The notes beneath the pieces are model-generated. The model ran no database searches. It saw only the letters and a program-made list of their open reading frames with translations, and was not told where the DNA came from. Shown here in pieces: positions 25,873-44,588 of a stretch of DNA of 64,000 nt; the stretch's first letter is position 1, and every line of letters starts with the position of its first letter. A program made the translations under genes and the position numbers. Source of the stretch: an uncultured Clostridium sp. (GTDB taxonomy: Bacteria > Bacillota > Clostridia > TANB77 > CAG-508); the NCBI GenBank assembly GCA_948442365.1, contig CAOJRU010000004.1, forward strand, positions 4,304-68,303, read 5' to 3'.

Positions 25873-25903
25873 TTTTTTCTACTCCTTTTTTTACATTTTA
25901 TTT

Positions 25904-26683: not shown

Positions 26684-26707
26684 TCTCCTTGTCTAATATT
26701 TCAATCT

Positions 26708-27454
26708 TTATGTTGTTACTTTTAAATATTCGTTTACAACTTCATCTGTATTTCCATCCATTCTTACTTTTCCATCATATAGCCATACTGCTCTATCACA
26801 TAAATTTCTAACAGAATCCATACTATGTGTAACAAAGACCATAGTCTTGCCTTCCTTTTTTAGTTCACGCATTTTGTTAAAACATTTTTCTTGAAAATGC
26901 TGATCTCCTACAGATAGAATCTCATCAATTAATAAAATGTCTGCATCTACATTGATAGCAACAGAAAAGGCTAAACGCATATACATTCCAGAAGAGTAGG
27001 TTCGTACTGGATTATCAATAAAGTCTTTCAATTCTGAAAATTCTATAATTTGTTCTAATCTTTCGTCAATTTCTTTTCTTGTTAATCCAAAAATAGAAGA
27101 ATTGAAATAAATATTCTCTCTGCCAGAAAAGTCTGGATGAAATCCAGCTCCTAATTCTAGCAGTGATGTTAGTTTTCCTTTGGTTTCTATCGTTCCTTGA
27201 TTAGGAAAGATAATTTGTGTCATTAATTTTAAAAGGGTTGACTTTCCACTTCCATTAACACCTATTAAAGCTACGGTTTCTCCCTTTTTTATGTCTAAAT
27301 TAATATCGTTTAAAACTTCTCTTTTTTCTCTTCTTTTATTTCTCGCAAAAAATAACATTCTTTCTTTTAAGGTATTGGCTCTATCGTAATAAATGTTAAA
27401 ACTTTTATAGACATGGTCTACTTTGATAGCAATATGATTATCTGTTTCTTTCAT
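26708..27454 (-). CDS. ABC transporter ATP-binding protein (TagH/Wzt-like)
   Basis: Walker A GVNGSGKST, signature LSGGM, Walker B ILLIDE. Confidence 0.85.
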   Translation of the reverse strand: MKETDNHIAIKVDHVYKSFNIYYDRANTLKERMLFFARNKRREKREVLNDINLDIKKGETVALIGVNGSGKSTLLKLMTQIIFPNQGTIETKGKLTSLLELGAGFHPDFSGRENIYFNSSIFGLTRKEIDERLEQIIEFSELKDFIDNPVRTYSSGMYMRLAFSVAINVDADILLIDEILSVGDQHFQEKCFNKMRELKKEGKTMVFVTHSMDSVRNLCDRAVWLYDGKVRMDGNTDEVVNEYLKVTT

Positions 27455-27531
27455 TTTTTGTCTCCTTTTGCGTTTTTTATTTCATTGTCATTATATCATA
27501 AAATTAATGGTTGTCAAATAATATTATACTT

Positions 27532-28953
27532 TTACTTTTCCATTTTTTTATACTGCCTTATCTCATTCATTAGTAGTGTATTTAAAGCTATTATCATTAT
27601 CATATTAGAAGAATTAAAAAATGTATAACCTACGAAAAAGGATAATAGAAATGAAAAACCAATTCCTAATAAATACATTACATATTGTGACTCTATTTGT
27701 TTTCTATATTTTATCATACTATAGGAACCATACAAGAATATACTAGCAAATGGTATAAAGTACAAAACAAATCCAATGATACCAAAATTAAATAAAAAAG
27801 CTGGTATTTCCATTTCCAATACTAATTCATAAAAATTAGTTATATACCCATTCCCTAACAATATATAAACTAAATTATGTTGGTTTTTTACTAAAACTGC
27901 ATTATAGATAAATTGTTGCATCCTATAATCATTGTTTTTAATTTTCCAGTTATTAGCGATATGATATAATTCTAAAATGGACTTTTTTCTTGCCTCACCC
28001 ATATAGCCTTCTTCTAATATATTATTTTCTATTTTTTCTTTTATGGCTAAGATATCTCCCGTAATATGTGCTTCTTGATTGCTTGCTGTATCAACTATAT
28101 TCTTTTCCATATCTTGTAACTGTTGTCTTCTTTGTAAGGTAGTCGAACCAATGGTAATAATCACTAACAAAATAGTTGCAATTCCAGCAATACCTCCTAC
28201 TACCATTTTAAGATTAATTTTCCCCTTTTTTCTTAATGTAATAATGATTTCAACTATCATATAAGTTACCACAACGATGATAAATCCTAATAAGCCCACT
28301 CTTGTTCCTAACAATACACTTAAGAAAAATCCTTCTAATAATATAATAGGAATTACTATCTTCCTATATTTTTTATCTTTAACATAGTTCATGATAATAA
28401 ATAATGATAATAGTAATATAGAACCTAAACTGTTTCCCGATTCAAACCATCCTTTATATCCCATGCCTTCTATATACGTGCTAGAAGATGTTTTGGTTAC
28501 AATTGCTAGATAGATTGAAATAATATATAGGATATTAGCTATTAATACACTTTTCGCTAAGTTCTCTGTGTTATTACTGTCTCTAAAAATATATAAATAC
28601 AGGCATAAATTTAAAATCATAAAAGAATAGTTTATAATGTATTGTGCTTCATGCCATACGGTACTATAACTACTTCCTGTTAATTCTTGTCTGATTACAT
28701 ATAAATGTAATATACCATATAGAAAATAAATCCCTCCTGTAATTAAGGCTGTTATCTTAAAACTCCTATCTTTTTTAAAAAATAAATATATCATCATGAC
28801 TGCAGGTATGAAAGGTCGTAAAAAGGTAGAAGGTGAAAAGTTGGTATGAAAAGTATTTCTAAAGATAAAACTTACTATGTCTAATATGGGACATAATACA
28901 ATAAATAAGCAAAGTATATTTTCTGTATTTACTGTTTCTTTTATTTTTATCAT
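27532..28953 (-). CDS. polytopic membrane protein, O-antigen ligase/polymerase (Wzy)-like
   Basis: 473 aa, at least 10 TM, with a large loop near the C-terminal third. Confidence 0.45.
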   Translation of the reverse strand: MIKIKETVNTENILCLFIVLCPILDIVSFIFRNTFHTNFSPSTFLRPFIPAVMMIYLFFKKDRSFKITALITGGIYFLYGILHLYVIRQELTGSSYSTVWHEAQYIINYSFMILNLCLYLYIFRDSNNTENLAKSVLIANILYIISIYLAIVTKTSSSTYIEGMGYKGWFESGNSLGSILLLSLFIIMNYVKDKKYRKIVIPIILLEGFFLSVLLGTRVGLLGFIIVVVTYMIVEIIITLRKKGKINLKMVVGGIAGIATILLVIITIGSTTLQRRQQLQDMEKNIVDTASNQEAHITGDILAIKEKIENNILEEGYMGEARKKSILELYHIANNWKIKNNDYRMQQFIYNAVLVKNQHNLVYILLGNGYITNFYELVLEMEIPAFLFNFGIIGFVLYFIPFASIFLYGSYSMIKYRKQIESQYVMYLLGIGFSFLLSFFVGYTFFNSSNMIMIIALNTLLMNEIRQYKKMEK

Positions 28954-28968
28954 GAAAAATCTCCTAAA

Positions 28969-30753
28969 TTATTCTTTTTCTCTAAAATGAATACCTATTA
29001 ATATTGGTAAACACGTAAACATACTATAAATATATCTAAATTCTCCAAATACTGGCGATGCAATGGTAGTCAACCATAAAATAGCCAATGGTACGTATAT
29101 AATTATTAAGTTATATTGCTTTCTATAAATAGCATACATTACCATCATCAATACTATCCAAAAAGTAAATCCTATACTATATAACATAGAATTTAATGGT
29201 AAATCTCTTCTATCTAGTAAGCTATCAAATTTCTCCAAATTTGGTAAGTCTACAATTGGTGTATCTTTTAATTGCAAAGTTGCCTCTTTTTCTTGTGTGG
29301 TTTCAAATACTTCTCTTCCCACTACCCAATGAATGGCTTCTGGATACCAATAACCATAATTGTTACATAAAAAAGACTCTATCGTTGCTCTTGGATATTT
29401 TAAAGCTAACTTTGCATATAATTTTACAAGTCCTATTTTATCCTCTGCAAATGCTTCATTACTAAAGTTATTTTTTACAGGATCGGATATTTTAGGAGTG
29501 TATACTTCTGCTAAATTATCAGTTGGCAAATATTTATAAATTCTCCATTTTTCTTCTTCTGTTAAGGTATCTCCATGTATTTTGGTAATTCTAGCAAATT
29601 GTTGTAATGGTATAGACAAGGCTTCTTTTGATGAACCTGGTTTTATGTGAAATAAAGAAAATACAGGGCCTTTCCAAATCATATAAGTGGCTAACACAAT
29701 ACAAGTGACAACAATTAATTTTTTATAATGTTGTCTTGCTAATACAAATAGACATGGAATGGTTAAAATTACAACATAAAGTCCATTATTTCTAAATAAA
29801 ATGGCTAATATCATACTAATGATTAATAAAATAATATTTCTTTTAGATTTCATAAAGCTTTCTTGATGAATTGCTATTTCTGTCATCATAATCGTGAAAA
29901 TTAGCATAACCGTAGCAAACGGAATATCTTTCCACATCGTAATACTATATAAACCATTAATGGGATAAAAAGCACAAAATAGTAGCGTTAATATTCTAAA
30001 TCTACTATCTACTTCTCTTTTTGCCATATAATAAATAGTAAAAGAAAAAATAGCAGATACCACCATCATTTGTACAATACTATAAATGGCTACTCCCAAA
30101 TTATAATTTCCTAATAACTTTCCTATATTCATGGCTATACTGATAAAAAAGGTATGAAAAACAGGATGATGATTTGTTAAATCATAAATTCCTAGTCCTT
30201 GACACATTTGTTGCATAGAATCTGGTGTGATAACACCTGGATAGTAATTAAGAAAATATGGTACCCATGCTACCAAAATAAGTCCCCATACCCAGAAAAA
30301 GGTTCTTTTGTTATTCGTAAACCACTTATGATTTCCCTTTAAAAATTCTTTTTCTTCTATTTTTACAAATATATTAGCTATCACAGCATATAATAGAATA
30401 ATATAGCCACATTCTTTCAGGATAGATTTCATAAGGGTTATTTGACTCTCTACAATGCCACTTAGATTTAAATAGGTATCTATTGAACTTCCTATTACTT
30501 CAAAAGTAGCTAATAGTATGGCTAATAAAATAGAACAAGCTTTTAATCTCCTATTTTCTATTTTGGCTATTTTATTTAGTAACCAATAAGTTAAAACAAA
30601 AAAGATAACCCAAAAAATAGAATTTCCTGTAAACGAATATCGAATGGCTGTGTTTTTATCCATATTCATGTTCATTGCAAAAGTTACTAAAATAGATAAT
30701 AATATTATTATAATTGGTTTTGTCTTAATCCATAAACACTTCACTTTTTCCAT
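28969..30753 (-). CDS. polytopic membrane protein, paralog of 48795..50585; candidate GT-C glycosyltransferase
   Basis: 594 aa. Shares YKDIPFATVMLIFTIMMTEIA ... FRNNGLYVVILT ... SPVFGEFRYIYSMFTCLP with 48795..50585. Confidence 0.4.
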   Translation of the reverse strand: MEKVKCLWIKTKPIIIILLSILVTFAMNMNMDKNTAIRYSFTGNSIFWVIFFVLTYWLLNKIAKIENRRLKACSILLAILLATFEVIGSSIDTYLNLSGIVESQITLMKSILKECGYIILLYAVIANIFVKIEEKEFLKGNHKWFTNNKRTFFWVWGLILVAWVPYFLNYYPGVITPDSMQQMCQGLGIYDLTNHHPVFHTFFISIAMNIGKLLGNYNLGVAIYSIVQMMVVSAIFSFTIYYMAKREVDSRFRILTLLFCAFYPINGLYSITMWKDIPFATVMLIFTIMMTEIAIHQESFMKSKRNIILLIISMILAILFRNNGLYVVILTIPCLFVLARQHYKKLIVVTCIVLATYMIWKGPVFSLFHIKPGSSKEALSIPLQQFARITKIHGDTLTEEEKWRIYKYLPTDNLAEVYTPKISDPVKNNFSNEAFAEDKIGLVKLYAKLALKYPRATIESFLCNNYGYWYPEAIHWVVGREVFETTQEKEATLQLKDTPIVDLPNLEKFDSLLDRRDLPLNSMLYSIGFTFWIVLMMVMYAIYRKQYNLIIIYVPLAILWLTTIASPVFGEFRYIYSMFTCLPILIGIHFREKE

Positions 30754-30772
30754 GTTTACTACACGCTCCCTC

Positions 30773-31927
30773 TTATTTTAAGTTTTCTTCAAAAAAATTC
30801 TTAAATTGTTCACATTTCTTTTCCCATGTCCATTCTTTTATTTGTTCTAAATTTTCTTTTGATAATTCTTCTATCTGTGCTTTATTCGCTAACAACATAA
30901 TTAATTTATTTTTCAATTCTTCCTTCGTACGTTCTTTTAAAATAAATTCTTTTTGCTTCTCTCCAAAAGCGTCTCTTACAATTCCTACATCGGTAGAAAT
31001 AATGGGAACACCAGAGGCCATAGATTCTAGTACAGGATTTGGCGTTCCTTCATTTTTAGAAGCACAAATATAAACATCTATCGAATTATAATAATCTGGC
31101 ATTTTTTCATGTGGGATATACCCTTCTTTTCTATCTGCAAATTTTAATTCAATTGGATACCCCTCTTGTATTAATTCTTCTAAAGCTGGTTTGATAATTT
31201 TTCTGACTCCTTTTAAATCAGAATCTCCTTCTGAATCTGTAAACTCGCTATTTCCTACCCAGCCAATTTTAAGTTTTCGATTTTGTAAATTTTCTAATTG
31301 AAATCTCTCTAAATTTTTAGGTTTAAATTTTTCTGTATCAACACCATCACTAATCACTACCATCGGTTTTTTTTCTACCTCTAACGCATTATAAATATCT
31401 TTTAAAATCGTAGAAGATACGGTATAATTTTTAGCATATCTAGTAAAAGATTTCGTCGTTTCAAAATTTTCTTCATCTAAGAATTTATGATCGTAGACAG
31501 AAGTTGTAAAAGTCGCTTTGCTATAAAATTTGTCCATAAATTCTTCAAAGGTTAATCCCATATTATGAATATAGCCTCTTGCAAATTCATAGTCTAAACA
31601 GGATAATAGCCCTCTCCATAAGCAATGTACTAAATCATATCTTTCTGCTAATAAAACTAATTTTACTGTATTATCATCAAAAACAGATACTGGAAAAATG
31701 TCAATTTCAAAATCTTTGGCTAAATAAGTTTGAATTTGTTTTGCTATATTGCTAAAAGCCCAACCATCTATATCATAAACTATTGCTATTTTCTTTTTAC
31801 CTGTTTTCTTTTCTGGTATTTCATTGGTATAGGGGAACTTTTCTTCCATATCAAATAATAGTTTCATTTCTTCTTCAAAAGTTACATTTGTCATTTTATA
31901 GGTTAATGGATCTATTTGTTTCTTCAT
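30773..31927 (-). CDS. GT-B fold glycosyltransferase (GT1/GT4 family)
   Basis: C-terminal EGTPNPVLESMASGVPIISTDVG is a GT4-type motif. Confidence 0.7.
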   Translation of the reverse strand: MKKQIDPLTYKMTNVTFEEEMKLLFDMEEKFPYTNEIPEKKTGKKKIAIVYDIDGWAFSNIAKQIQTYLAKDFEIDIFPVSVFDDNTVKLVLLAERYDLVHCLWRGLLSCLDYEFARGYIHNMGLTFEEFMDKFYSKATFTTSVYDHKFLDEENFETTKSFTRYAKNYTVSSTILKDIYNALEVEKKPMVVISDGVDTEKFKPKNLERFQLENLQNRKLKIGWVGNSEFTDSEGDSDLKGVRKIIKPALEELIQEGYPIELKFADRKEGYIPHEKMPDYYNSIDVYICASKNEGTPNPVLESMASGVPIISTDVGIVRDAFGEKQKEFILKERTKEELKNKLIMLLANKAQIEELSKENLEQIKEWTWEKKCEQFKNFFEENLK

Positions 31928-32140
31928 TTACTTCTCCTTATTATCTTTTCTTTTTATTATCTTCCTAATTCTTCCTTTTAGTCTATACATAATGGTTCTT
32001 CTATATTTTTCTACTTCTTTTTTCATTTGTGCCTTTTCTCTACATACCATTCCAATGGTTCCTAATAAAATCTCGTTTTCCTTTTGTAAAATGTAATTTT
32101 TTAATTTTGCTCGTTCTAATTCTAGTTTTATATCTTCCAT
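31928..32140 (-). CDS. small coiled-coil hypothetical protein (70 aa), abutting the downstream GT gene
   Basis: ORF from the track, K/R/E-rich. Its stop abuts the GT1 start. Confidence 0.3.
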   Translation of the reverse strand: MEDIKLELERAKLKNYILQKENEILLGTIGMVCREKAQMKKEVEKYRRTIMYRLKGRIRKIIKRKDNKEK

Positions 32141-32214
32141 TTTTTTCTACTCTCCTATTTCTTTTTGTTTTGTATTATATCATACTTTTACCTCATGTCA
32201 ACCTTTCCCTTTTC

Positions 32215-32482
32215 TTTAAGTTTCAAGTTTTTTTGGTAAGATTAGCTCCCACCTCTTGGCATATAATATGGTTATTTTTCATAAATTCTTCGGTTCCCTT
32301 CATAATTCAAGGAATTCTAATATAATTTTACGGGTCCTTTCCAAGACAAGCTTGAACTCTTACCGTAAAATGATTAAGAATTCCTAATCTTACTCCAGTC
32401 ACATTCATCTTTTATTCAAAATAACCATATTATATGCCAAGAAGTAGAAGCTAATCTTGTGAGAAAAAAACCGAAACTTAAA
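32215..32482. repeat. structured intergenic element, family B copy 1 (about 268 bp; ~64-bp terminal inverted repeats; conserved ~110-nt core hairpin)
   Basis: Outer arms tttaagtttcaagtttttttggtaagattagctcccacctcttggcatataatatggttatttt (left arm) and aaaataaccatattatatgccaagaagtagaagctaatcttgtgagaaaaaaaccgaaacttaaa (right arm). The core aggaattctaatataattttacgg...ccgtaaaatgattaagaattcct is homologous to 47625..47829. Confidence 0.7.
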
Positions 32483-32484
32483 TT

Positions 32485-33969
32485 TTATTTTGCTAAGTAC
32501 TGGTAAAAAATAGAATTGGTATCTGCAATAAAATTATCGTAACATTCATTTCCTTCTTTTACAAATACAGAAGGAAGGCTATCACTTCTGGCTGAAAATT
32601 CCCTTTGTAATACTTTTGCTTCATGTTTAACAGTTCGAACCATTTCTGTAATTGGTGTAACAGCTCCTAGAGATAGTACAATAATAAGTGCTATTGATAT
32701 CTTTTTATTTGCCTTTTCGTTCTGTAATTCTTTCATAATTAATAACATAATATAAAAGGCTAATGGTATACAGGTTCGGTAAGCAAAATCATAACTATTT
32801 CCTAATAAAATAAATGGCATTATAAAAGTAATTCCAATCAATATATTTAAGATTACATCTTTACGATTCTGTTTATAAATAAAAATTAAATATAAGATAA
32901 ACTCAAAAAACAAATAACAAATATATTTTAAAATATTTTCACCATTTACTTCTAATATACTTATTTTTCCCACAGCAGTATTACTTTTCATAAACAGTCC
33001 TATAATTACAATTAGCAATAATGATACTATATTTTCAAACGTACATGCTTTTTTTATCCTATTCATCCATTTCCTTATGAGATTACTTTGTTCTTCTGTT
33101 TTTGGTTTTTTGCATACTAAATATACCATAACTGGTGCTAATGCTACCAATGGAAATGGCGAATATAACAATAACATAGCATAGATTAATCCAATCGACT
33201 TACTATTCTTTTGTTGTAACAATAACATCATTCCTACCCAAAAAGGTATAATTTGATTATATAACCAAAATAATAAGGTAGTATTAGAAGAAGAATTAAA
33301 ATAAGTTGTAGCTAGTTCAATATGTCTTCCTCCTATTATTTGAAGTAAGGATTCTTTGATTGGCAACTTTGAAAAAAGTAAAAATAAAAATATATCTAAT
33401 CCACTATAAAATATTAATATAATGATATTTGTTATCCTTATTTTTTTTAAATATTGACAAATCATTCCAAATGCAATGGTAATTCCTATAACAGCCCATA
33501 AAATTTGAAATAAGTAGCCAATTTGTAATCCTGCTATTTTCCCTACTATCGCAGATGGTAACCAAAATCCCAAATAATAACATAGAGCTTTTCCGTCTTG
33601 TATAACTGGCCAGTTTTTTCCCACTAGATCCATAAAAATAGCATTTCTAAATTTGTGATCCCATGTATTCTGCCAAACAAATCCTCCTATTCCTGCCAAA
33701 ATTACCCAAGCCGTTATCATTCCTAAAATGATGATGACTTTTTTATGATTTTCTAATAAATTTATTGTCATTTTGGGTGCATTTAAACTTGCCTTCCAAA
33801 CAGCTATTGCTAATAATATGGTTACTGGTATACTAATACTATATTTTACATTTCCTAATAAAAACATGGCAATTGAAATAAACAAATAAAAATAAGCTGC
33901 TAAATAAATCCATTTTTCTTTTATTAATTGTCTCAAATTTATATTTTTAAACTTCATAACTTCCTCCAC
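32485..33969 (-). CDS. polytopic membrane protein (494 aa), polysaccharide-locus associated
   Basis: At least 12 TM. Flanked by a 28-bp near-identical direct repeat (32462..32490 and 34022..34050). Confidence 0.5.
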   Translation of the reverse strand: MEEVMKFKNINLRQLIKEKWIYLAAYFYLFISIAMFLLGNVKYSISIPVTILLAIAVWKASLNAPKMTINLLENHKKVIIILGMITAWVILAGIGGFVWQNTWDHKFRNAIFMDLVGKNWPVIQDGKALCYYLGFWLPSAIVGKIAGLQIGYLFQILWAVIGITIAFGMICQYLKKIRITNIIILIFYSGLDIFLFLLFSKLPIKESLLQIIGGRHIELATTYFNSSSNTTLLFWLYNQIIPFWVGMMLLLQQKNSKSIGLIYAMLLLYSPFPLVALAPVMVYLVCKKPKTEEQSNLIRKWMNRIKKACTFENIVSLLLIVIIGLFMKSNTAVGKISILEVNGENILKYICYLFFEFILYLIFIYKQNRKDVILNILIGITFIMPFILLGNSYDFAYRTCIPLAFYIMLLIMKELQNEKANKKISIALIIVLSLGAVTPITEMVRTVKHEAKVLQREFSARSDSLPSVFVKEGNECYDNFIADTNSIFYQYLAK

Positions 33970-34112
33970 TTTTGTATTCTAACATTTATTTTTTTCGTTT
34001 TCAATACCATTTTTACTTTACAAGAAAAAAATCGAAACTTAAATTTTCATTTATTCTTGAAACTAATTTGCTGTTATGTTATCATAATAGCAAATTAGTA
34101 AGGAGATTATCT

Positions 34113-35768
34113 ATGGAATCACAAAAAACAAAGAAAAATTTAATGGTATGTAATCTATTTAAAAATTTATTATTCATTATTTCTGTTACGACTATGACCT
34201 TTTTATTAATCCATATTGAATCAGTTGAACAAAGAATTATTAGTGTTTCTTTGTCCTTTTTCGTAACTTGTTTTCTTACCTTCAAATTTCAAATACGAAA
34301 AAAGATATTTCAGAACTTCACTATAAAATATGCTATTATGGCTCTATTTTTAGCCTTAGCTACTAGCCTTGCTTTTGCCCAAATATTTTATACTTATCAT
34401 ATAGTAGTAGAACCTATGCGAACTTTCTTTTTAAATTCACCTATTCCCAATAATTTAATTATGTTTGGATTAGTTTTACTTTCTTTGTATGCTATTTATA
34501 GCTTTTACTACTATTTTATTAGTAGATTTTTACCAAAAGCCATTTTATTTAGTAAAACATTAGAAAAGCAAGAAAAATATCATTTAATTATTACTACCAT
34601 TGTTTTAGGATTGCTAATTCTTGTTATTTATTCCTATACTTCTGTATTTTATTTGCCAAAAATAAATGGAGAAGTACAAGCTTTTGATGTTATCTATTCT
34701 ACTGACACAGGCGGTCATGGCTTACTAAATGATTACATTGATATTACAGCTATTGAAAATGACATTAGGCAACCTCTTTTTGGAGTATTTTCTTTACCAT
34801 TTGCTATCCTGGCTTATGCTTTTGGTAACTTATTGAATCATTTTGATAATACTTATTTTATTTTAATTGCTATTATCCAAGTATTTTTGATGAATATTAT
34901 TAGCATCTTGTTAAGTCGATTATTGCAATTAGAAAAAAAAGAAAAAACGCTCTTTCTACTATTTTATACCATAACCTATCCTTTTCTTCTATTTGCTTTT
35001 AATTTAGAACAATATGTATTTGGTATGTTTTGGCTATTTTGCTTTTTATATTCCTGTTGGGATCATAAAAAAGGAGATAAATTTTGTTTTATTGCTGCCA
35101 CTGGCTCTTTATTAACCAATGGTATTCTCTTTCCTTTTCTAACAACAGGGAAAAAATTAAAACAATGGATAACAGATTTTGTTACTACTGGATTTGCTTT
35201 TCTAAGTGGATTGGTTATTTCTGGTCAAACTCCAGTTCTATTAAACCTTTTTTCTAGTGGTATCACACATGTGACTAAATATATGATAAGAGATGTTTCC
35301 TTTTTTCATGTGATTTGTCAATATAGTCATTTTGTAAAAAATTGTTTTATAGCACCTTTTCAAACGATAACAGAAGAAAGGCTAGGACACATTTCTTTTC
35401 AGTTAGCACCTGCTACTTCTTTAAGTGTAATTGGTACGATACTTTTCATTTTAGTAATTGTTGGTTTTATCTTAAATAGAAAAAATAAATTTGCTAAATT
35501 ATGCTTCTCTTGGATTGTGTTTTCTATGATTCTTCTTATTGGAATGAGATATGGAACAAGAGAAAATGGACTTATTTTATACTCTTTTTATTTTGGCTGG
35601 GCTTTTGTCAGTTTATTGTTTTTATTATTAAAGAAAGTATTAGATAAAAGACCAAAACTTTTACTTGTTATAGTAACCCTACTAATTGTATTCTTATTAA
35701 TTAGTAATCTAAAAGGATTGCAGGATTTAGTACAATTTGGATTACAACATTATGACCATATTATATAA
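34113..35768 (+). CDS. polytopic membrane protein (551 aa), candidate GT-C-type transferase
   Basis: Start chosen at the ATG at 34113 with AAGGAGA 8 nt upstream, where the track ORF starts at 33972. Many TMs. Loop DYIDITAIENDIRQP is acidic. It sits immediately upstream of the UbiA-like gene on the same strand. Confidence 0.45.
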   Translation: MESQKTKKNLMVCNLFKNLLFIISVTTMTFLLIHIESVEQRIISVSLSFFVTCFLTFKFQIRKKIFQNFTIKYAIMALFLALATSLAFAQIFYTYHIVVEPMRTFFLNSPIPNNLIMFGLVLLSLYAIYSFYYYFISRFLPKAILFSKTLEKQEKYHLIITTIVLGLLILVIYSYTSVFYLPKINGEVQAFDVIYSTDTGGHGLLNDYIDITAIENDIRQPLFGVFSLPFAILAYAFGNLLNHFDNTYFILIAIIQVFLMNIISILLSRLLQLEKKEKTLFLLFYTITYPFLLFAFNLEQYVFGMFWLFCFLYSCWDHKKGDKFCFIAATGSLLTNGILFPFLTTGKKLKQWITDFVTTGFAFLSGLVISGQTPVLLNLFSSGITHVTKYMIRDVSFFHVICQYSHFVKNCFIAPFQTITEERLGHISFQLAPATSLSVIGTILFILVIVGFILNRKNKFAKLCFSWIVFSMILLIGMRYGTRENGLILYSFYFGWAFVSLLFLLLKKVLDKRPKLLLVIVTLLIVFLLISNLKGLQDLVQFGLQHYDHII

Positions 35769-35781
35769 TTAGGAGATTAAA

Positions 35782-36669
35782 ATGGAAAAATTGAAGAACT
35801 ATTTAAAATTAATTAGAATAAAACACTATTTGAAGAACTTTTTAGTATTTGCCCCTTTGTTATTTAGTGGTAACTTTTTTAAAGTAGACTATTTATTAAA
35901 TACGCTATTAGCCTTTATTGCTTTTAGCTTTATTGCTTCTGTTGTTTATATTATTAATGATATTCGAGATGTTGAAAAAGATAAATTACATCCCATTAAA
36001 AAAAATCGCCCTATTGCCTCTGGTAAAGTATCAACAATTGAGGGAATTGTGCTAGCCATTATTTTATTGGTAATCGCTATCAGTATTAACTTATGGATAC
36101 ATGCCTCTTTTTTTGCTTTTATGCTATTATTGGCTTATCTATTTATGAATATTGCTTATAGTTTTGGACTTAAAAATATTCCTATCATTGATATTTTAAT
36201 ATTAAGTATTGGCTTTTTATTAAGGGTATTTTATGGCGCCACGACTTTAGAACTAAATGTTTCTAATTGGCTATATTTAACCATATTATCTATTTCTTTT
36301 TATTTAGGGCTAGGAAAAAGAAGAAATGAAATTGATAAAAGTAAGGATTCCAGAAAAGTATTAGCACAATATAATCGTAATTTTCTTGACAAAAATATGT
36401 ATATGTGTTTAGGCTTAACGATCATGTTTTATTCCCTTTGGTGCGTGGATCCTATTAATAGTTCCCGTTTTAGTGGCATTAATTATTTATTACTTACTGT
36501 ACCTATTGTTATGATAATTTGTATGAAATATAGTTTAGATATTGAAGGCGATTCTTTTGGGGACCCTGTTGATGTTGTATTTTCAGATAAGACTATTCTT
36601 GTTTTAGTTGCTATTTATGCTCTTTTTATCTTTTTACTGTTATATATATTCCCTATTTTTATTCATTAG
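35782..36669 (+). CDS. UbiA-family prenyltransferase, resembling polyprenyl-phosphate 5-phosphoribosyltransferase (DPPR-synthase-like)
   Basis: YIINDIRDVEKDKLHPIKKNRPIASGKVS has the NDxxDxxxD Asp-rich motif followed by HPxK...RPIASG. 8-9 TM. 295 aa. Confidence 0.6.
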   Translation: MEKLKNYLKLIRIKHYLKNFLVFAPLLFSGNFFKVDYLLNTLLAFIAFSFIASVVYIINDIRDVEKDKLHPIKKNRPIASGKVSTIEGIVLAIILLVIAISINLWIHASFFAFMLLLAYLFMNIAYSFGLKNIPIIDILILSIGFLLRVFYGATTLELNVSNWLYLTILSISFYLGLGKRRNEIDKSKDSRKVLAQYNRNFLDKNMYMCLGLTIMFYSLWCVDPINSSRFSGINYLLLTVPIVMIICMKYSLDIEGDSFGDPVDVVFSDKTILVLVAIYALFIFLLLYIFPIFIH

Positions 36670-36687
36670 ATGAAAGGATGATAAAAG

Positions 36688-37257
36688 ATGAATGTTTATG
36701 ATTTTGATAATACCATCTATTTAGGAGATAGTACCTTAGATTTTTACTTTTTCTGCCTCAAAAAGCAACCTTCTATTCTCCTTGCGATACCTATTCAATT
36801 TTATGGATTGATTGGTTATCGATTGCATACATTTTCTAAAACCGAAGGTAAAGAAAAATTTTATAGTTTTCTTCGTAAATTAAAAAATATAGACACTTTA
36901 TTAGAAGATTTTTGGAAGAAAAAAGAAAAAAATATAAAAAATTTTTATTTAACACAAAAACAAAAAAATGATGTTATTATTTCAGCTTCTCCTTATTTTC
37001 TATTAGAGCCTATTTGTAGAAAGTTAGAAATCCAGCATTTAATCGCTTCAAATGTAGATAAGGCTTCTGGAAAATATTTTGGATTAAATTGTTATGGAGA
37101 AGAAAAAGTCAAGCGTTTTCAACAAGAATTTTCTCTTTCTGCTATTGAAAATTTTTATTCAGATTCTTTGTCGGATGCTCCTCTTGCTCGTTATGCTAAA
37201 AAAGCCTTTTTAGTTCATAATAACACCATTATAGATTGGAAAGAAGATACCTTATAA
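36688..37257 (+). CDS. HAD-superfamily phosphatase
   Basis: N-terminal VYDFDNTIY (DxDxT motif I). 189 aa. 18 nt downstream of the UbiA-like gene. Confidence 0.6.
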   Translation: MNVYDFDNTIYLGDSTLDFYFFCLKKQPSILLAIPIQFYGLIGYRLHTFSKTEGKEKFYSFLRKLKNIDTLLEDFWKKKEKNIKNFYLTQKQKNDVIISASPYFLLEPICRKLEIQHLIASNVDKASGKYFGLNCYGEEKVKRFQQEFSLSAIENFYSDSLSDAPLARYAKKAFLVHNNTIIDWKEDTL

Positions 37258-37277
37258 TTTGGTATCTTCTTTCTCAT

Positions 37278-40200
37278 TTAATTATTTTTTTCTATCTGCT
37301 TTTCTTCTAGTTCCTCTTCTTCTATCTCCTCTTTTTCTTCTGGTTCTTCTTTTACTTCATCTTTTGGTTTTTCTATCAATTCTCCTTCTGTTTCTTCTTC
37401 CATCGTATCTGGTAATGAGTCTACTATTGGTAATTCTTCTTGCATTTCTGTTTCTTGTTTTACTTCATTTTTTTCTTCTGGCACTTCCATCATAAATGTT
37501 CTAGTAGTTACTGTTTCAAAAAGCATTTTGTTATTTCTTAATACTATTTTACTGTTTCCTTTGAACATTCCTACCATTTCATTTGGTTGCATATTTGCTT
37601 GTTGTGTCTTATTGGTCGAAGTATTATTATTGTTTGTTAATTTTACTTCAATGTAATATTCTTTGCTTGTATCTAAATCATATACTACTCTATCATAGTA
37701 GTAATTTAATCCACCTTCATGTACTACATGCATTCCCATACTATAACTTCCATCCGTTGCTTTTAATGTCATTTCTGGCAATCCATTTGGAATATTGGCT
37801 ACTCCATCTACCCATTCTGCTATTAAAATATTCCCATGTATATATTCTCTTCCTATTTCATTGAAATCAATATGCATTGTCTTTAAGTCTGTATTAATGT
37901 CTCCTTTGTATTTGCTTCCATCTTTCATCTTAATCTTATTGTCTTCTGCTACTAATTTAATGGCATTGTATTTTCCTATTTGTTTGTTTGGTAATTTAGC
38001 AATTTGTACCGTATTGGTTGAAATATTATTTCCATTTGTTAATTTTACTTCTATCACATATTCTTTGCTACTGTCTAAATTGTCCATTACTCTGTCATAG
38101 GTATAGCTTAATCCTCCATTATGTGCTAGATGCATTCCTGTCCAGAAACTTCCATCGGTTGCTTTAATAATCATTTCTGGTAATTTATTTGGTACATTCG
38201 CTACACCATTAATCCATTCTGCTATTAAAATTTCTCCATAAATGTAATTTCTTCCTACCTCATTTTGAGCTAAATCAATTGTTTTTAAATCTGTATTAAT
38301 ATCGCCTCTATATTCATTTCCTTTGAATACTATCTTATTGTTTTCTATGGTTAAGTTTTTGTCTTTGAACATACCTACATTTCTTGAAGCATTTAAGTTT
38401 GCTCTTTGTTGTTTGTTGGTTCCTATATTTTTATTTCCCGTCAATTTTACTTCTATATAGTATTCTTTTTTGATATCTAAATTATCAATTACTCTGTCAT
38501 AATAATAATTTAATCCGCCTACATGTGCTACATACATTCCCATACTATAACTTCCATCCGTTGCTTTTAATGTCATTTCTGGTAAGCCATTTGGTGTATT
38601 AGCCATTCCATCAACCCATTCTGCTATTAAAATATTTCCATGTAGATATTCTTTTCCTACTTCATTGATTCCTATATACATCGTTTGTAAATCAGTATTA
38701 ATATCCCCTTTATATAAGCTTCCGTCTATCATTTTTATTTTATTATTTTCTGCTATTAATTTTACTTGATCATATTTGCCAATTTCTTTATTTGGCAATT
38801 TAGCTATTTGTGCTTTGCTGTTTCCTTTATTATTGATACCTGCTAATTTTACTTCAATTTCATATTCTTTTGTTACATCTAAATTATCTACAACTCTGTC
38901 ATACGTATAACTTAGTCCTCCATTATGCACTAAATGAATTCCTGTCCAGAAGCTTCCATCCGTTGCTTTGATAATCATTTCTGGTAATCCTTCTGGAACA
39001 TTAGCTACTCCATTTATCCATTCTGCTATTAAAATTTCTCCATAAATATAATGTCTTCCTACTTCATTTTGAGCTAGATTAATTGTCTTTAAGTCTGTGT
39101 TAATGTTTCCTACATATACTGGTTTTATTTTATTATCTTCTAGTAATAGTGTTCTTCCTTTAAAAGTTCCAATTTCTTTATTTGGTAGTAATACGGTTTG
39201 TGTCTTTCTGTTTCCTATATTATCCTCTCCTGTTAAAGTTGCCTCTATATAATATTGTTTTGATAAATCGATTTCATCAATAAACACATCATAATAATAA
39301 TTTAATCCTTGTAAATGGCTAATATACATTGGAATATTTCTTGAGCCATCGGTTGCTTTTAGCACTAATTCTGGTAATGAATTTGGTACATAAGCAACAT
39401 TGTTTTTCCATTCTGCTACTAACATATTTCCACTAATATAATATCTTCCTTGTGCATTTTGGTTCAATTTTATTTCTTTTAAGTCAGTATTAATATCTCC
39501 TATATACCCTCCAGTAGAGAAATAAATTTTATTGTTTTTGGTTTTTATGGTAGTTCCTTTATATTCTCCTACTGTCATATTTGGCATATTTACGTTCTGT
39601 GTCTTATTGGTTGATATATTTTTATCTGTTGTCAATTTGGCTTCTAAATAATATTCTTTATTTGTATCTAAGGTATCTAATATTCTATAATAAGAATAAC
39701 TTAATCCTCCATTATGAGTTACATTGATTCCTTGCACAATACTTCTGTCCGTTGATTTAATTGTCATTTCTGGTATCGTTTTTGGTACACATGCTACCCC
39801 ATTCACCCATTCTGCTATTAAAACTTCTCCTGTTATATAACTTCTTCCATCTGCTTCTTTTCCGATTTGCATCGTTTTTAAATCTGTATTGATGTTTCCG
39901 TAATATTCAGGATTTGGCTCTTGTGAAAGTGTTGCTGGCATATTTTCATAAATTGGAATTACAAATTCAAAATCTCTATTTAATAATAATTTTGCTCTAT
40001 TATAGGCATCATACATTAAACTAGCCTCATTTTTAGCAGCCAATAAGTTTTGCATATATTGATGCCAATATAAACCACTATAACTATCATCCACATCAAA
40101 TTTTTGTAAATATAAGGTATTTTGTCCTACATTAAGATATTTGTCCTTAATAAAAGTTCCTCCGCCTGCAATGGATAATGATCTAGATGTCCAATTTTCT

Positions 40201-40922
40201 CGTAGTGCTCTGGCTAATCCATTCGTTTTTACCTCTGCTGGACTGTTTCCTGTTGCTCCTATACTAAATAGATTATATAACCCTTTATAAACTACGCCAT
40301 TGGTTCCTAAATATTCTTCTCCTGAACTTAAGGTAGAAGTTCCTGAGCTTCCTTGTTCTTGGATCGTTCTAGTTACCAAGTGAAAGGCATTTATATTATT
40401 GTCACGTGCTGCATTGTAAAGAGCAACTATGTTATCCCAATCTTCTGTTAAAAAAGAATTTTGTGCCGCTATATGAATGGCTTTTGTATCTAACGTACCT
40501 GCAGAAGTATCTAATTTTTGAAATTGAAATATATTTTTGGCATCCAAATATAAGCGTGGATCCATTAAGTATTTTATCGCTTCTTCTGACGCACAATACC
40601 ATCCTGTATCATATAATTTAGAACCACAATCTGGGCATCTCCACTCTTCTGAATAATTATTTGGTACTAGGTTTCTTCCATGAACTCTTTCATTTCTAAT
40701 AACCGTTTCCCAATCTAATTTTGTATATAAAACTTTTATCTTTGGATAAATGGTTTGTAATTGTTTTATTTTATCCTTATAACCAGGATATTTTGCCTCA
40801 TCAATCCCATTGATATCTGAGCTAATAGTAGCAGCTTGTACTTTACCTGTGTATAATAAAATAGCCACTAATACAGCCAATAAAAATATTCCGATTTTCA
40901 TAATCTTATGTACAAATTTCAT
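37278..40922 (-). CDS. secreted peptidoglycan hydrolase: N-terminal GH73-like N-acetylglucosaminidase domain, 7 repeats of a ~125-aa module, and an E/K-rich tail
   Basis: Signal peptide MKFVHKIMKIGIFLLAVLVAILLYTGKVQA. Catalytic region with GQNTLYLQKFDV...GLYWHQY (glucosaminidase-like). The repeats share GDINTDLKT...ILIAEW.NGVAN.P...PEM.IKATDGS...H.GGL.Y.YDRV.D.LD..KEY.IEVKLT. The last ~330 aa are identical to 41207..44530. Confidence 0.65.
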   Translation of the reverse strand: MKFVHKIMKIGIFLLAVLVAILLYTGKVQAATISSDINGIDEAKYPGYKDKIKQLQTIYPKIKVLYTKLDWETVIRNERVHGRNLVPNNYSEEWRCPDCGSKLYDTGWYCASEEAIKYLMDPRLYLDAKNIFQFQKLDTSAGTLDTKAIHIAAQNSFLTEDWDNIVALYNAARDNNINAFHLVTRTIQEQGSSGTSTLSSGEEYLGTNGVVYKGLYNLFSIGATGNSPAEVKTNGLARALRENWTSRSLSIAGGGTFIKDKYLNVGQNTLYLQKFDVDDSYSGLYWHQYMQNLLAAKNEASLMYDAYNRAKLLLNRDFEFVIPIYENMPATLSQEPNPEYYGNINTDLKTMQIGKEADGRSYITGEVLIAEWVNGVACVPKTIPEMTIKSTDRSIVQGINVTHNGGLSYSYYRILDTLDTNKEYYLEAKLTTDKNISTNKTQNVNMPNMTVGEYKGTTIKTKNNKIYFSTGGYIGDINTDLKEIKLNQNAQGRYYISGNMLVAEWKNNVAYVPNSLPELVLKATDGSRNIPMYISHLQGLNYYYDVFIDEIDLSKQYYIEATLTGEDNIGNRKTQTVLLPNKEIGTFKGRTLLLEDNKIKPVYVGNINTDLKTINLAQNEVGRHYIYGEILIAEWINGVANVPEGLPEMIIKATDGSFWTGIHLVHNGGLSYTYDRVVDNLDVTKEYEIEVKLAGINNKGNSKAQIAKLPNKEIGKYDQVKLIAENNKIKMIDGSLYKGDINTDLQTMYIGINEVGKEYLHGNILIAEWVDGMANTPNGLPEMTLKATDGSYSMGMYVAHVGGLNYYYDRVIDNLDIKKEYYIEVKLTGNKNIGTNKQQRANLNASRNVGMFKDKNLTIENNKIVFKGNEYRGDINTDLKTIDLAQNEVGRNYIYGEILIAEWINGVANVPNKLPEMIIKATDGSFWTGMHLAHNGGLSYTYDRVMDNLDSSKEYVIEVKLTNGNNISTNTVQIAKLPNKQIGKYNAIKLVAEDNKIKMKDGSKYKGDINTDLKTMHIDFNEIGREYIHGNILIAEWVDGVANIPNGLPEMTLKATDGSYSMGMHVVHEGGLNYYYDRVVYDLDTSKEYYIEVKLTNNNNTSTNKTQQANMQPNEMVGMFKGNSKIVLRNNKMLFETVTTRTFMMEVPEEKNEVKQETEMQEELPIVDSLPDTMEEETEGELIEKPKDEVKEEPEEKEEIEEEELEEKQIEKNN

Positions 40923-41206
40923 CCTTTTTCACTCCTTTTTATTTCTGAGTTAAGTATATCGTATTTTTCTTTTTTTTTCAACAAATTTCTTTGTATTTTT
41001 CCTGTTAATTTTTGGCATGATTTTCTTACCTTGATTTACTTATTTGGCTATAAAAAGGCCCTTCTAAAATTTTCAAATCTATACAAATTTGGGGAAAATC
41101 TAAGTTCTTACCTAGTTAACGATAAAAAGAGAACCCTTCTCATAAAACCCAAAACTTTTTTGGTTTCATAATTAGAATTCTCTTTCTGTTTATGCCTTTT
41201 TCTAGC

Positions 41207-44200
41207 TTATTTACTCTCTTTCATTTTGTCTTTTTCTTCTTGTGTATCGTTTTTTTCTAACTCTTCTATTTCTTCGCTTTCTTTATCTTCTGCTTTTTCT
41301 TCTTTCTCTTCTTTTTTCTCTTCTTCTATTCTTGTATTTTCTATCGAATCTGTTGTTGGTAACTCTTCTAATATTTCAGTTTCTTGCTTTATTTCTTCTT
41401 TTTCTTCTGGTTTTTCTATCATAAATGTTCTAGTAGTTACTGTTTCAAAAAGCATTTTATTATTTCTTAATACTATTTTACTATTTCCTTTAAACATTCC
41501 TACCATTTCATTTGGTTGCATATTTGCTTGTTGTGTCTTATTGGTCGAAGTATTATTATTGTTTGTTAATTTTACTTCAATGTAATATTCTTTGCTTGTA
41601 TCTAAATCATATACTACTCTATCATAGTAGTAATTTAATCCACCTTCATGTACTACATGCATTCCCATACTATAACTTCCATCCGTTGCTTTTAATGTCA
41701 TTTCTGGCAATCCATTTGGAATATTGGCTACTCCATCTACCCATTCTGCTATTAAAATATTCCCATGTATATATTCTCTTCCTATTTCATTGAAATCAAT
41801 ATGCATTGTCTTTAAGTCTGTATTAATGTCTCCTTTGTATTTGCTTCCATCTTTCATCTTAATCTTATTGTCTTCTGCTACTAATTTAATGGCATTGTAT
41901 TTTCCTATTTGTTTGTTTGGTAATTTAGCAATTTGTACCGTATTGGTTGAAATATTATTTCCATTTGTTAATTTTACTTCTATCACATATTCTTTGCTAC
42001 TGTCTAAATTGTCCATTACTCTGTCATAGGTATAGCTTAATCCTCCATTATGTGCTAGATGCATTCCTGTCCAGAAACTTCCATCGGTTGCTTTAATAAT
42101 CATTTCTGGTAATTTATTTGGTACATTCGCTACACCATTAATCCATTCTGCTATTAAAATTTCTCCATAAATGTAATTTCTTCCTACCTCATTTTGAGCT
42201 AAATCAATTGTTTTTAAATCTGTATTAATATCGCCTCTATATTCATTTCCTTTGAATACTATCTTATTGTTTTCTATGGTTAAGTTTTTGTCTTTGAACA
42301 TACCTACATTTCTTGAAGCATTTAAGTTTGCTCTTTGTTCTTTATTGGTTCCTATATTTTTATTTCCTGTTAATTTTACTTCTATATAATATTCTTTTTT
42401 CGTATCTAAATCATAGATTACTCTGTCATAATAATATTTTAGACCTCCTAAATGTGCTACATGCATTCCCATACTGTAACTTCCATCGGTTGCTTTTAAT
42501 GTCATTTCTGGTAAACCACTTGGAATATTGGCTACCCCATCTATCCATTCTGCTATCAAGATATTTCCATGTATATATTCTCTTCCTACTTCATTTACTC
42601 CAATATACATCGTTTGTAAATCGGTATTGATATCTCCCCTATAAATACTTCCATCTATCATTTTTATTTTATTATTTTCTACTACTAATCTTACTTGATC
42701 ATATCTTCCAATTTCCTTATTTGGCAATTTTGCTATTTGTGCTTTGCTGTTTCCTTTATTATTGATACCTGTTAGTTTTACTTCAATTTCATATTCTTTC
42801 GTTGGATCTAAATTATCCATTACTCGATCGTACGTATAACTTAATCCTCCATTGTGTACTACATGCATACCTGTCCAAAAACTTCCATCCGTTGCTTTGA
42901 TAATCATTTCTGGTAATCCTTCTGGGATATTAGCCACTCCATCCATCCATTCTGCTATTAAAATTTCTCCATAGATATAATGTCTTCCCACTTCATTTCT
43001 GGCTAGGTTAATTGTCTTTAAGTCAGTATTAATAGCTCCTATATATGTTGGTTTTATTTTGTTATCTTCTAGTAATAGTGTTCTTCCTTTAAAAGTTCCA
43101 ATTTCCTTATTTGGTAATACTATAGTTTGTGTCTTTTGCTTTCCTATATTATCTTCTCCTACTAACGTTGCTTCTAAATAATATTGTTTTGCTAAATCTA
43201 ATGTATCTATTGCTACATTGTATTGATAATTAATTCCACTATCATACGTAATATTGACTGGTCTATCGATACTGTTATCTGTTGCTTTTAATCTTACCAC
43301 TGGCATTTTCTTTGGTATATTGGCTACTCCATTCACCCATTCTGCAATATATAGATTGCCTGAAATAGTATTTCCTTTTAGTTCTATTTGTTTTAAATCG
43401 GTATTAATATCTCCTACATATTCACCTGTTGAGAAATAAACTTTATTGTTTTTCGTTTTTATCGTAGTTCCCTTATATTCTCCTACTGTCATATTTGGCA
43501 TATTTATTGTCTGTATTTTATTATTTGATACATTATTAGCTGAAGTTAACTTAGCCTCTAAATAATATTCCCTATTAATATCTAAGGTATCTAATATTCT
43601 ATAATAAGAATAACTCAATCCTCCATTAGGAATCACATTCAATCCTTGTATAACTGCTCCATCGGTTGATTTGATTGTCATTTCTGGTGTACCATTTGGA
43701 ATATTGGCTACTCCATTCACCCATTCTGCTATTAGTACCTCTCCTGTTATATAGCTTCTTCCATCTGCTTCTTTTCCTGTTTGCATCGTTTTTAAATCCG
43801 TATTGATATCTCCTACATAGTCTCTTCTAAATAAATCTTTATTGGCAATAATCGCTTTTGCATCTGCTTCTGCCATTTTGTTTAACATAGCATCATTTAA
43901 ATAATGTTCTCTATCATAAGCGTTATTAATAAAAGCATGTTCTACTAATACAGCTGGAATATCCATATGCATTGGCCAACTTATAATACCATAATAATCA
44001 GCAACCGTTCCATCTGGATAGATGTCATTTGGTGTTCCTACTCTTACTTTTGGCTTAAAAGCAAAAGAACTAACTCCCACATTTCTTAAATTTTGTAATA
44101 TATCTTCTCCTAATTTATTAGAATATTCAAAATATCTTCTTTGTTTGGTATTATGTGTCACATATACTTCTGCTCCTGATAACCTACTAGAAGAATCGTT

Positions 44201-44530: not shown

Positions 44531-44588
44531 TTTTTACCTTCCTCTCCTCCTTAATTTTACTATAACGATTTTAAAATAACAATACCAA

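Follow-up and report, generated by a model that had tools for sequence, protein, structure and literature searches.

Described pentofuranose systems

The closest described counterparts of the genes treated here are the pentofuranose system of Citrobacter youngae O1/O2, which has been established biochemically (Kelly et al., PNAS 2024, PMC11127046), and the S-layer glycan locus of Clostridium difficile Ox247 (SLCT-11), which has been studied genetically (Richards et al., J Biol Chem 2018, PMC6254364). The genes in question form an operon (34113..37257, plus strand) for a GT-C candidate transferase, a UbiA-fold synthase and a HAD-IB phosphatase. It lies on a 64-kb stretch of DNA from an uncultured Clostridium sp. 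with a G+C content of about 29%, referred to as the window in the following. The operon is most likely a new example of a lipid-linked ribose-donor system that is already known genetically from C. difficile (2018) and biochemically from Citrobacter (2024). A preliminary description of this DNA, made from the sequence alone, had considered such a system as not characterised in Firmicutes. This has to be corrected, because orf4 of Ox247 is needed for an α-ribofuranose (α-Ribf) branch and the 2024 study by Kelly et al. contains both the pathway and a Bacillus candidate. A search of the available literature after 2024 found no Firmicute follow-up to the lipid-linked pentofuranose pathway.

In C. 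youngae, ORF15 combines a polyprenyl-phosphate phosphoribosyltransferase (PPPRS) with a HAD phosphatase, the flippase is the MATE protein ORF14, and ORF12 is a GT-C transferase and the founder of family GT136 (PMC11127046). Conserved residues of ORF12 are D31, E34, H106 and R349. An optional epimerase of the short-chain dehydrogenase/reductase (SDR) type leads to xylofuranose (Xylf), while systems lacking the epimerase yield Ribf; the supplement of the same study lists candidates in which the phosphatase has a gene of its own, others with SMR- or GtrA-type transporters, and one candidate from a Bacillus strain (PMC11127046). The window operon would follow the same scheme of a UbiA-fold synthase acting on phosphoribose diphosphate (PRPP) and polyprenyl phosphate, dephosphorylation by a HAD protein, flipping, and transfer by a GT-C protein to an ABC-exported glycan. 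It differs from the C. youngae system in that phosphatase and synthase are two proteins, the former being of the HAD-IB type and without detectable match to the fusion model NF006088, that the candidate flippase is of the GtrA type and not adjacent to the operon, and that the GT-C protein has no C-terminal carbohydrate-binding module. In addition, the host is Gram-positive, which would make the acceptor a glycan of the wall or of a protein and not an O antigen.

The S-layer glycan of C. difficile Ox247 carries an α-Rib-(1->3) branch on rhamnose, and insertional inactivation of orf4 results in glycans that consistently lack ribose (PMC6254364). Orf4 is annotated as a PRK12324/PT_UbiA_2 phosphoribose diphosphate:decaprenyl-phosphate phosphoribosyltransferase and was interpreted by its authors as the ribosyltransferase itself; the adjacent orf5 encodes a GT-C protein of the YfhO type (PMC6254364). 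Both loci come from Clostridia and combine a PRK12324 UbiA protein, a likeness that is based on annotation, with an adjacent GT-C gene, a Wzm/Wzt exporter and an O-antigen-ligase-like gene. However, the GT-C protein is DUF6080-related in the window, the Ox247 locus table contains neither a HAD phosphatase nor a GtrA protein, and the rml genes and the WcaJ-type initiating enzyme of Ox247 have no counterpart in the window. Features that set the window apart from both prototypes are a cytoplasmic Ribf transferase and a PRPP synthetase gene (prs) in the same locus and the insertion encoding the membrane protein M490 (see below).

A more distant counterpart is the mycobacterial decaprenyl-phospho-arabinose pathway, which comprises Rv3806c, Rv3807c, DprE1/DprE2, Rv3789 and the Aft/Emb GT-C transferases. 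The synthases are homologous and share a conserved PRPP site, the GtrA-like candidate flippase resembles Rv3789, and the fold of the predicted transferase resembles AftA, AftB and AftD. In contrast to this pathway, the carrier in the window is presumably C55 instead of C50, and decoration of side chains is predicted instead of arabinan polymerization. Pfam scans covered 46 of the 64 window open reading frames (ORFs) of at least 100 aa, the remainder being short or located inside larger genes. No PAP2-type (Rv3807c-like) phosphatase was found in these scans, and the position adjacent to the synthase gene is occupied by the HAD-IB gene. Because DprE1/DprE2 and a PAP2 phosphatase were not found, the operon is not regarded as a mycobacterial-type arabinose pathway.

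The predicted UbiA-fold phosphoribosyltransferase

The genes 34113..35768 (551 aa), 35782..36669 (295 aa) and 36688..37257 (189 aa) constitute one tight operon on the plus strand. They are separated by gaps of 13 nt and 18 nt without overlaps, and the second and the third gene are each preceded by a Shine-Dalgarno sequence of their own. All ORFs named in the preliminary description were recovered at the same positions; its statement that the synthase and phosphatase genes are translationally coupled was too strong in view of the 18-nt gap and the separate Shine-Dalgarno sequence.

The product of the second gene (35782..36669) contains the sequence NDIRDVEKDKLHPIKKNRPIASG at residues 59-81 and matches the general UbiA family PF01040 with E=1.7e-21 (77 bits; cut-off 34). 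Beyond this general fold, it belongs by sequence to the Rv3806c/PRK12324 subfamily of polyprenyl-phosphate phosphoribosyltransferases (PPPRS/DPPR synthase) and not to the quinone or heme prenyltransferases. It passes the NCBIfam model for DPPR synthases, NF008978, with 214.7 bits (cut-off 207). The NCBIfam models for MenA, UbiA, CyoE, chlorophyll synthase and GGGP-type enzymes all remain at or below 56 bits, with 55.9 bits for the best standalone UbiA model outside the DPPR synthases. The best sequence match in the PDB is Rv3806c from M. tuberculosis (8J8J, E=2.6e-39, residues 7-277), and the next UbiA-fold chain follows at E=1.3e-10.

This assignment is further supported by the active site. 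The cryo-EM study of Rv3806c names the residues in contact with PRPP and points out that ordinary UbiA enzymes do not conserve those that bind the phosphoribose moiety (PMC10994848). The site consists of a magnesium site (N73/D77), a cluster of lysine and arginine residues (R22, K87, R90, K143), contacts to the 5'-phosphate and the ribose (K28, Y70, Q135, Y157), and the further residues Y138 and K208 (PMC10994848). When these positions were mapped onto the window protein via pairwise alignment with Rv3806c (8J8J), ten of the twelve contacts were identical: R22, K28, Y70, N73, D77, K87, R90, Y138, K143 and K208, which correspond to R12, K18, Y56, N59, D63, K73, R76, Y126, K131 and K192. The other two show conservative changes (Q135 to N123 and Y157 to F145), and phenylalanine in place of Y157 is also present in some mycobacteria (PMC10994848). 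In an alignment of 15 homologues with identities down to 56%, all contact positions except K192 are invariant (11 of 12). From its subfamily and active site, the enzyme is predicted to convert PRPP and undecaprenyl phosphate (C55-P) into C55-P-ribose-5-P.

The DPPR-synthase type of the protein had been proposed in the preliminary description on the basis of its motifs, and it is borne out by the scores of 215-218 bits for the DPPR-synthase models against at most 56 bits for other types, by Rv3806c as best match and by the retained PRPP residues. The protein could in principle still be an ordinary prenyltransferase of the MenA, UbiA, heme O synthase or GGGP type without a role in glycan synthesis, as its general Pfam UbiA fold would allow. 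This is extremely unlikely given the same model scores, which did not group the protein with the MenA, UbiA or chlorophyll-synthase clades, and the conservation of PRPP-specific residues. The genomic context points in the same direction, as the genes next to UbiA in 80 related loci are glycan genes and not quinone or heme genes.

The HAD-IB phosphatase and its fusions

The product of the third gene (36688..37257) is a HAD-IB protein (PF12710, E=7.8e-18; TIGR01488, 47.4 bits with a cut-off of 45) in which the catalytic motifs DxDxT (YDFDNT) and SDxxxD are intact. It is a candidate for the polyprenyl-P-ribose-5-phosphate 5'-phosphatase that would release C55-P-Ribf, with strong contextual evidence from gene linkage and gene fusions.

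Linkage was analyzed in 80 genome loci containing UbiA relatives with 47-95% identity, mostly from Clostridia, Bacilli, Christensenellaceae, Desulfosporosinus and similar organisms. Sixty of these, mostly from Bacillota, have at least 3 kb of flanking sequence on each side, and genes within 4 kb of the UbiA gene were counted as neighbours. A HAD of the window family is found near UbiA in 33 of the 60 loci, a large GT-C-candidate membrane protein in 47, and both together in 30. The candidate transferases belong to several families, with GT-C proteins of the DUF6080 type in 24 loci, PMT_2-like GT-C proteins in 14, a related 584-aa family ('TM584') in 13, M490 in five and DUF6020 in two.

In addition, the HAD-IB family is repeatedly fused, as the N-terminal part, to other proteins. 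In organisms such as Desulfosporosinus nitroreducens and Clostridium butyricum the partner is a GtrA-type flippase domain, and such HAD::GtrA fusions are encoded directly downstream of UbiA in relatives. Two single polypeptides combine HAD, GtrA and GT-C parts (P0451, P0430). Further fusions join HAD to YfhO (P0361), to DUF6080-type proteins (P0298 and P0366, the HAD part of P0298 being 50% identical to the window HAD), to M490 (P0387, E=7e-160) and to the PMT_2-like and TM584 families; fusion genes of the HAD family are located, for example, at 10919-11881 of locus L018 and at 14837-15862 of locus L012. Apart from GtrA, the fusion partners belong to five or more polytopic membrane families, and four or more of these are GT-C-like. 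Fusions of HAD to UbiA were not present among the best 150 representatives of the window HAD family. Repeated fusion to a flippase for lipid-linked sugars and to transferases that depend on such sugars is expected of an enzyme that matures a lipid-linked sugar phosphate. The pathway role that had been proposed earlier for this HAD protein on the basis of its position is therefore tied to the machinery for lipid-linked sugars by conserved adjacency and by gene fusions.

The fusions also bear on the alternative that C55-P-ribose(-5-P) serves as the lipid primer for synthesis of the main polymer ahead of ABC export, UbiA replacing the initiating phosphoglycosyltransferase. Such a role would account for the fact that no initiating enzyme of the TagO/WecA or WcaJ type was found in the window. 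However, initiating enzymes are often encoded elsewhere, and the HAD::GtrA and HAD::GtrA::GT-C fusions argue for a flipped monosaccharide donor that is used by an extracellular GT-C protein. Furthermore, the C. difficile orf4 mutant lost the ribose branch only and kept the rest of the glycan (PMC6254364). A primer function is thus very unlikely.

The GT-C candidate transferase

The mechanical ORF for the first gene (34113..35768) begins with TTG at position 33972. The ATG at 34113, which yields a protein of 551 aa, is preceded by the ribosome-binding site AAGGAGA and has also been chosen by metagenome gene callers. In Pfam, a marginal match to DUF6080 (30.5 bits) is the sole hit. An AlphaFold2 model based on an alignment of 52 sequences is confident (pLDDT 92, pTM 0.93) and has the GT-C fold, which agrees with the GT-C call of the preliminary description. 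The figures obtained for the model against individual GT-C proteins were 20.5 for ALG12, 15.3 for Pmt4, 13.7 for ArnT, 13.4 for AftB, 13.3 for AftA and 12.0 for AftD. Residues D192, D198 and D217, which are located in a loop, are invariant. According to the predicted structure, the protein encoded beside the synthase is a GT-C fold glycosyltransferase. Linkage, fusions and fold make it a candidate polyprenyl-P-ribofuranose:glycan ribofuranosyltransferase.

Proposed pathway

The operon 34113..37257 probably represents a Gram-positive version of an extracytoplasmic system for pentofuranose side chains. In the first step, the synthase (35782..36669) would transfer 5-phosphoribose from PRPP to C55-P at the cytoplasmic face of the membrane, as is suggested by its subfamily and the conservation of its active site. 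The HAD protein (36688..37257) would then remove the 5'-phosphate to form C55-P-ribofuranose. For the third step, we infer that a GtrA-type protein flips the lipid-linked sugar, for which 24331..24825 is the sole candidate in the window. Finally, the GT-C protein (34113..35768) would attach the ribofuranose to a glycan assembled in the cytoplasm, for whose export the locus encodes an ABC transporter. The second and fourth steps are based on linkage, fusions and fold. By analogy with the described systems, the added Ribf would be α-linked.

Several observations weigh against this pathway. For the synthase, the scores with two further NCBIfam models are below the cut-offs (NF008977, 218.3 bits with a cut-off of 234; NF008976, 157 bits with a cut-off of 474). 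For the HAD protein, no similarity to the HAD+UbiA fusion model NF006088 could be detected, so that its role as 5'-phosphatase rests on context and fusions, and a single HAD::GT2 fusion (P0403) indicates that the family is not tied exclusively to UbiA. The candidate flippase is encoded about 10 kb from the operon beside a hexose-donor synthase, which it may serve instead. Moreover, genes for epimerases could lie beyond the 64-kb window, and the organism is known from metagenome assemblies alone.

Identity of the sugar

The preliminary description had predicted ribofuranose instead of arabinofuranose as it saw no DprE1/DprE2-like epimerase. In agreement with this, neither an FAD oxidase of the DprE1 type nor an SDR epimerase of the DprE2 or ORF13 type was found in the scanned window ORFs, which leaves ribofuranose as the default and likeliest sugar.

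Alternatively, the donor pathway could be the same, and enzymes encoded outside the window could epimerize C55-P-ribose to arabinofuranose (DprE1/DprE2-like) or xylofuranose (ORF13-like SDR). The visible sequence comprises 64 kb alone, one SDR is sufficient for the switch from Ribf to Xylf in the study by Kelly et al. (PMC11127046), and an SDR epimerase gene adjoins UbiA in three of the 60 related loci, for example at 10965-11984 of locus L074 (PF01370). Nevertheless, the described systems keep the epimerase in the same cluster, and none was found in the glycan locus of about 32 kb or its flanks. C. difficile Ox247 makes α-Ribf with no such epimerase in the published locus table (PMC6254364), and the window locus itself encodes a dedicated Ribf transferase (53712..55613, see below). 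Epimerization is hence an unlikely fate of the donor in this organism, and we prefer ribofuranose.

The three loci in which a PF01370 NAD-dependent epimerase is encoded directly beside UbiA are L074, L070 and the L042 region (Christensenellaceae). This suggests that these lineages convert the ribose donor into another pentofuranose.

The surrounding glycan locus

The operon is part of a glycan locus of about 32 kb (approximately 23383..55613) that is flanked by trpS and the gene for IMP dehydrogenase and encodes at least eight glycosyltransferases and an ABC exporter. A packed string of genes on the minus strand encodes, in this order, a GT1 protein, a DUF6020 GT-C protein, an O-antigen-ligase-like protein, an ABC-2 exporter, Prs, a GtrA protein and a PgfS/ArnC-like protein. 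The exporter gene (25904..27454, minus strand) encodes a permease and an ATPase as in glycan exporters of the Wzm/Wzt or TagGH type (PF01061, E=6.6e-23; PF00005, E=3.6e-22). The O-antigen-ligase-like membrane protein (27532..28953, minus strand; PF13425, E=1.4e-37) could act as ligase or O-oligosaccharyltransferase for the exported glycan.

The prs gene (24931..25872, minus strand) encodes a bona fide ribose-phosphate diphosphokinase (NF002320, 361 bits with a cut-off of 297) that would supply PRPP. It is located on the opposite strand about 10 kb from the UbiA operon within a divergent glycan operon, and this position is kept only in the closest relatives, L009 and L011. The preliminary description had counted prs as part of the UbiA pathway. 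Its identity and its presence in the locus were confirmed, but its presence there is at least equally well explained by another gene of the locus, 53712..55613.

This gene (minus strand) encodes a protein of 633 aa that had escaped the preliminary description and that, from its sequence, would constitute a second, cytoplasmic PRPP-dependent ribofuranose route in the locus. It is a homologue of the PRP-gPRT enzyme from Thermobacillus composti (PDB 7SHG; Kelly et al. 2022, cited in PMC11127046), which consists of a HAD phosphoribosyl-phosphatase and a glycan phosphoribosyltransferase and, according to its summary by Kelly et al., adds β-Ribf directly from PRPP (PMC11127046). Residues 3-579 of the window protein align with residues 38-636 of the PDB entry, which is named 'Ribofuranosyl transferase' (E=4.9e-33), the homology extends over the full length with the same order of an N-terminal HAD and a C-terminal transferase domain, the N-terminal HAD motif FDIWDT is intact, and no transmembrane segments are predicted. 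In contrast to the products of operon 34113..37257, this enzyme is soluble, and its gene is separate from the operon within the same locus. The presence of prs is sufficiently explained by 53712..55613, and together the two genes are an independent pointer to ribofuranose in the polymer. A tblastn search of a phage collection for a published phage with a separate PRP gene returned one unannotated 6.6-kb record with 32% identity. The neighbouring gene 52717..53700 (minus strand) encodes a soluble protein of 327 aa without Pfam, NCBIfam or PDB match. It was considered as a stand-alone gPRT domain and rejected because it resembles neither the 633-aa protein nor any chain in the PDB. Five related loci (L017, L024, L025, L029 and L068) contain homologues of it next to GT2 genes, and these homologues are often duplicated and longer.

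The locus also encodes parts of a second lipid-linked route. Three-component hexose glycosylation of the CsbB/GtcA/YfhO type is known from B. subtilis and Listeria, and the three-component Gtr paradigm is described in PMC11127046. The window shares with these systems a GtrB/PgfS/ArnC-like synthase, a GtrA protein and GT-C proteins of the DUF6020 family. Unlike the UbiA-fold, PRPP-dependent enzyme of the operon, the donor synthase of Gtr/CsbB-type systems is a GT2 protein that uses a nucleotide sugar. The GtrB/PgfS/ArnC-like polyprenyl-phosphate glycosyltransferase (23383..24318, minus strand) has a GT2 domain (E=3e-36) and two C-terminal hydrophobic helices. Its matches to the models for PgfS (E=8e-101) and ArnC (E=5e-49) do not reach the curated cut-offs; it would probably make a second lipid-linked donor with a hexose. 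The GtrA-family (Rv3789-like) small membrane protein (24331..24825, minus strand; PF04138, E=7e-21) has about four hydrophobic segments. It is the only protein of this family encoded in the window and, from its family, a candidate polyprenyl-P-sugar flippase. Neither this gene nor that of M490 is mentioned in the preliminary description. Together, 23383..24318 and 24331..24825 resemble a classical Gtr-type hexose module that could serve both DUF6020 GT-C proteins. The gene 47849..48802 was considered as a second GtrB-like synthase and rejected, as its product has no hydrophobic C-terminal helices.

The two DUF6020 GT-C-like membrane proteins are encoded by 28969..30753 (minus strand; PF19484, E=1e-44; PMT_2, E=4.7e-4) and 48795..50585 (minus strand; PF19484, E=2.4e-40), and the DUF6020 profile aligns with the PMT_2-like family at 93.8% by hhalign. 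The preliminary description had connected both of them, in addition to 34113..35768, with the ribose donor. Of the three, only 34113..35768 is part of the UbiA operon. For 28969..30753 and 48795..50585, a hexose donor is available in the locus as an alternative, and because of this second donor the use of ribose by the DUF6020 proteins cannot be assumed.

Possible acceptors of the ribose

The acceptor could be a wall polysaccharide or, as in C. difficile Ox247, an O-linked protein glycan. The combination of an exporter with a ligase resembles the layout of S-layer glycosylation loci, so that the acceptor glycan could be O-linked to a protein of the surface or the S-layer, with the same chemistry, instead of a peptidoglycan-anchored wall polysaccharide or teichoic acid. 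The Ox247 S-layer locus has the same parts (UbiA, GT-C, Wzm/Wzt and ligase), and neither a LytR-CpsA-Psr (LCP) ligase nor an initiating phosphoglycosyltransferase of the TagO/WecA or WcaJ type was found by the Pfam scans in the locus and its flanks. A further point in favour is that two large secreted repeat proteins are encoded inside the locus. However, O-antigen-ligase-like proteins are known from wall-polysaccharide loci as well, the genes for LCP ligases frequently lie in other parts of a genome, and no S-layer, SLH or CWB2 domain was detected. A protein glycan as acceptor is possible but less likely than not.

As observed for S-layer O-glycosylation loci, the ligase-like gene 27532..28953 stands beside the ABC exporter. 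The two secreted proteins (37278..40922 and 41207..44530, both minus strand) are paralogues of 1214 and 1107 aa with 75% identity over 1,020 aa, and their genes lie centrally in the glycan locus. They have in common about seven tandem repeats of 134 aa (402 nt), for which there is no Pfam match, and an acidic tail rich in Glu and Lys. Their N-terminal domains differ, one being an Amidase_3 domain and the other being without assignment but conserved in other loci. These proteins may be autolysins that bind the wall glycan or targets of glycosylation.

The strain-variable membrane protein M490

The operon converges on the gene for the 1214-aa repeat protein (37278..40922) and diverges from the gene for M490 (32485..33957, minus strand), a polytopic membrane protein of 490 aa with about 12 hydrophobic segments. 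The divergent intergenic region between the two (33958..34112) contains promoter-like sites with extended -10 sequences in both directions, at 34057-34085 on the plus strand and at 34004-33976 on the minus strand. Scans for promoters and terminators, including this region, gave no matches above the shuffled expectation; the sites are compatible with promoters and do not constitute evidence for them.

The closest public relatives of the window are gut metagenome assemblies. An identical UbiA protein is found on contigs from several metagenome samples, and one contig of a metagenome-assembled genome is collinear with the window at 89-94% nucleotide identity. The M490 gene is located on a segment of 1,785 bp (32259..34043), in place of which the 94% identical relative L009 has 35 bp (8229..8263), and the segment is also missing from L010 and L011. 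Genes of the M490 family adjoin UbiA-HAD in seven of the 80 loci. M490 has no Pfam or NCBIfam match and no match in a profile search of PDB sequences, and hhalign comparisons with the DUF6080, DUF6020, PMT_2-like and TM584 profiles gave a probability below 10% in each case. A single-sequence AlphaFold2 model is unusable (pLDDT 47). M490 probably belongs to the UbiA/HAD pathway; that it is a second, antigen-diversifying transferase is a reasonable guess and not a result.

Significance of the PRPP-dependent donor route

A more extensive interpretation, which is possible but can be put forward only tentatively, would connect three parts: a new GT-C family, a third class of phosphatase and a ribofuranose glycan made by two routes. 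According to the first part, the DUF6080-related protein would found a family of polyprenyl-P-ribofuranose-dependent GT-C enzymes distinct from GT136 and YfhO. According to the second, the HAD-IB protein would represent a third, non-orthologous class of polyprenyl-P-ribose-5-P phosphatases that is repeatedly fused, up to polypeptides comprising phosphatase, flippase and transferase. In the third part, ribofuranose would be added in the cytoplasm from PRPP as well as extracytoplasmically from C55-P-Ribf, with a dedicated prs feeding both routes, and M490, as an additional transferase that varies between strains, would make the antigen more diverse among gut Clostridia.

The window operon does not open a new category of biology. 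The observations that are useful for the family as a whole are the fusions, the exchange of GT-C partners in a mix-and-match manner and the wide distribution in gut Bacillota. So far, the route from PRPP via a lipid carrier to a GT-C transferase has been worked out in Citrobacter only and glimpsed in one lineage of C. difficile. It is common in gut Bacillota; genomes of representative species gave 182 confirmed matches, and the protein clusters number more than 6,000. For annotation, the combination of a PRK12324 UbiA protein with a HAD-IB protein, with or without GtrA, marks a lipid-linked pentofuranose donor, and the large membrane protein encoded next to them is the likely transferase, whichever family it belongs to. 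To our knowledge, human glycans contain neither ribofuranose nor other pentofuranoses. For this reason, surface polymers with pentofuranose would be strongly antigenic and can be receptors for phages or antibodies.

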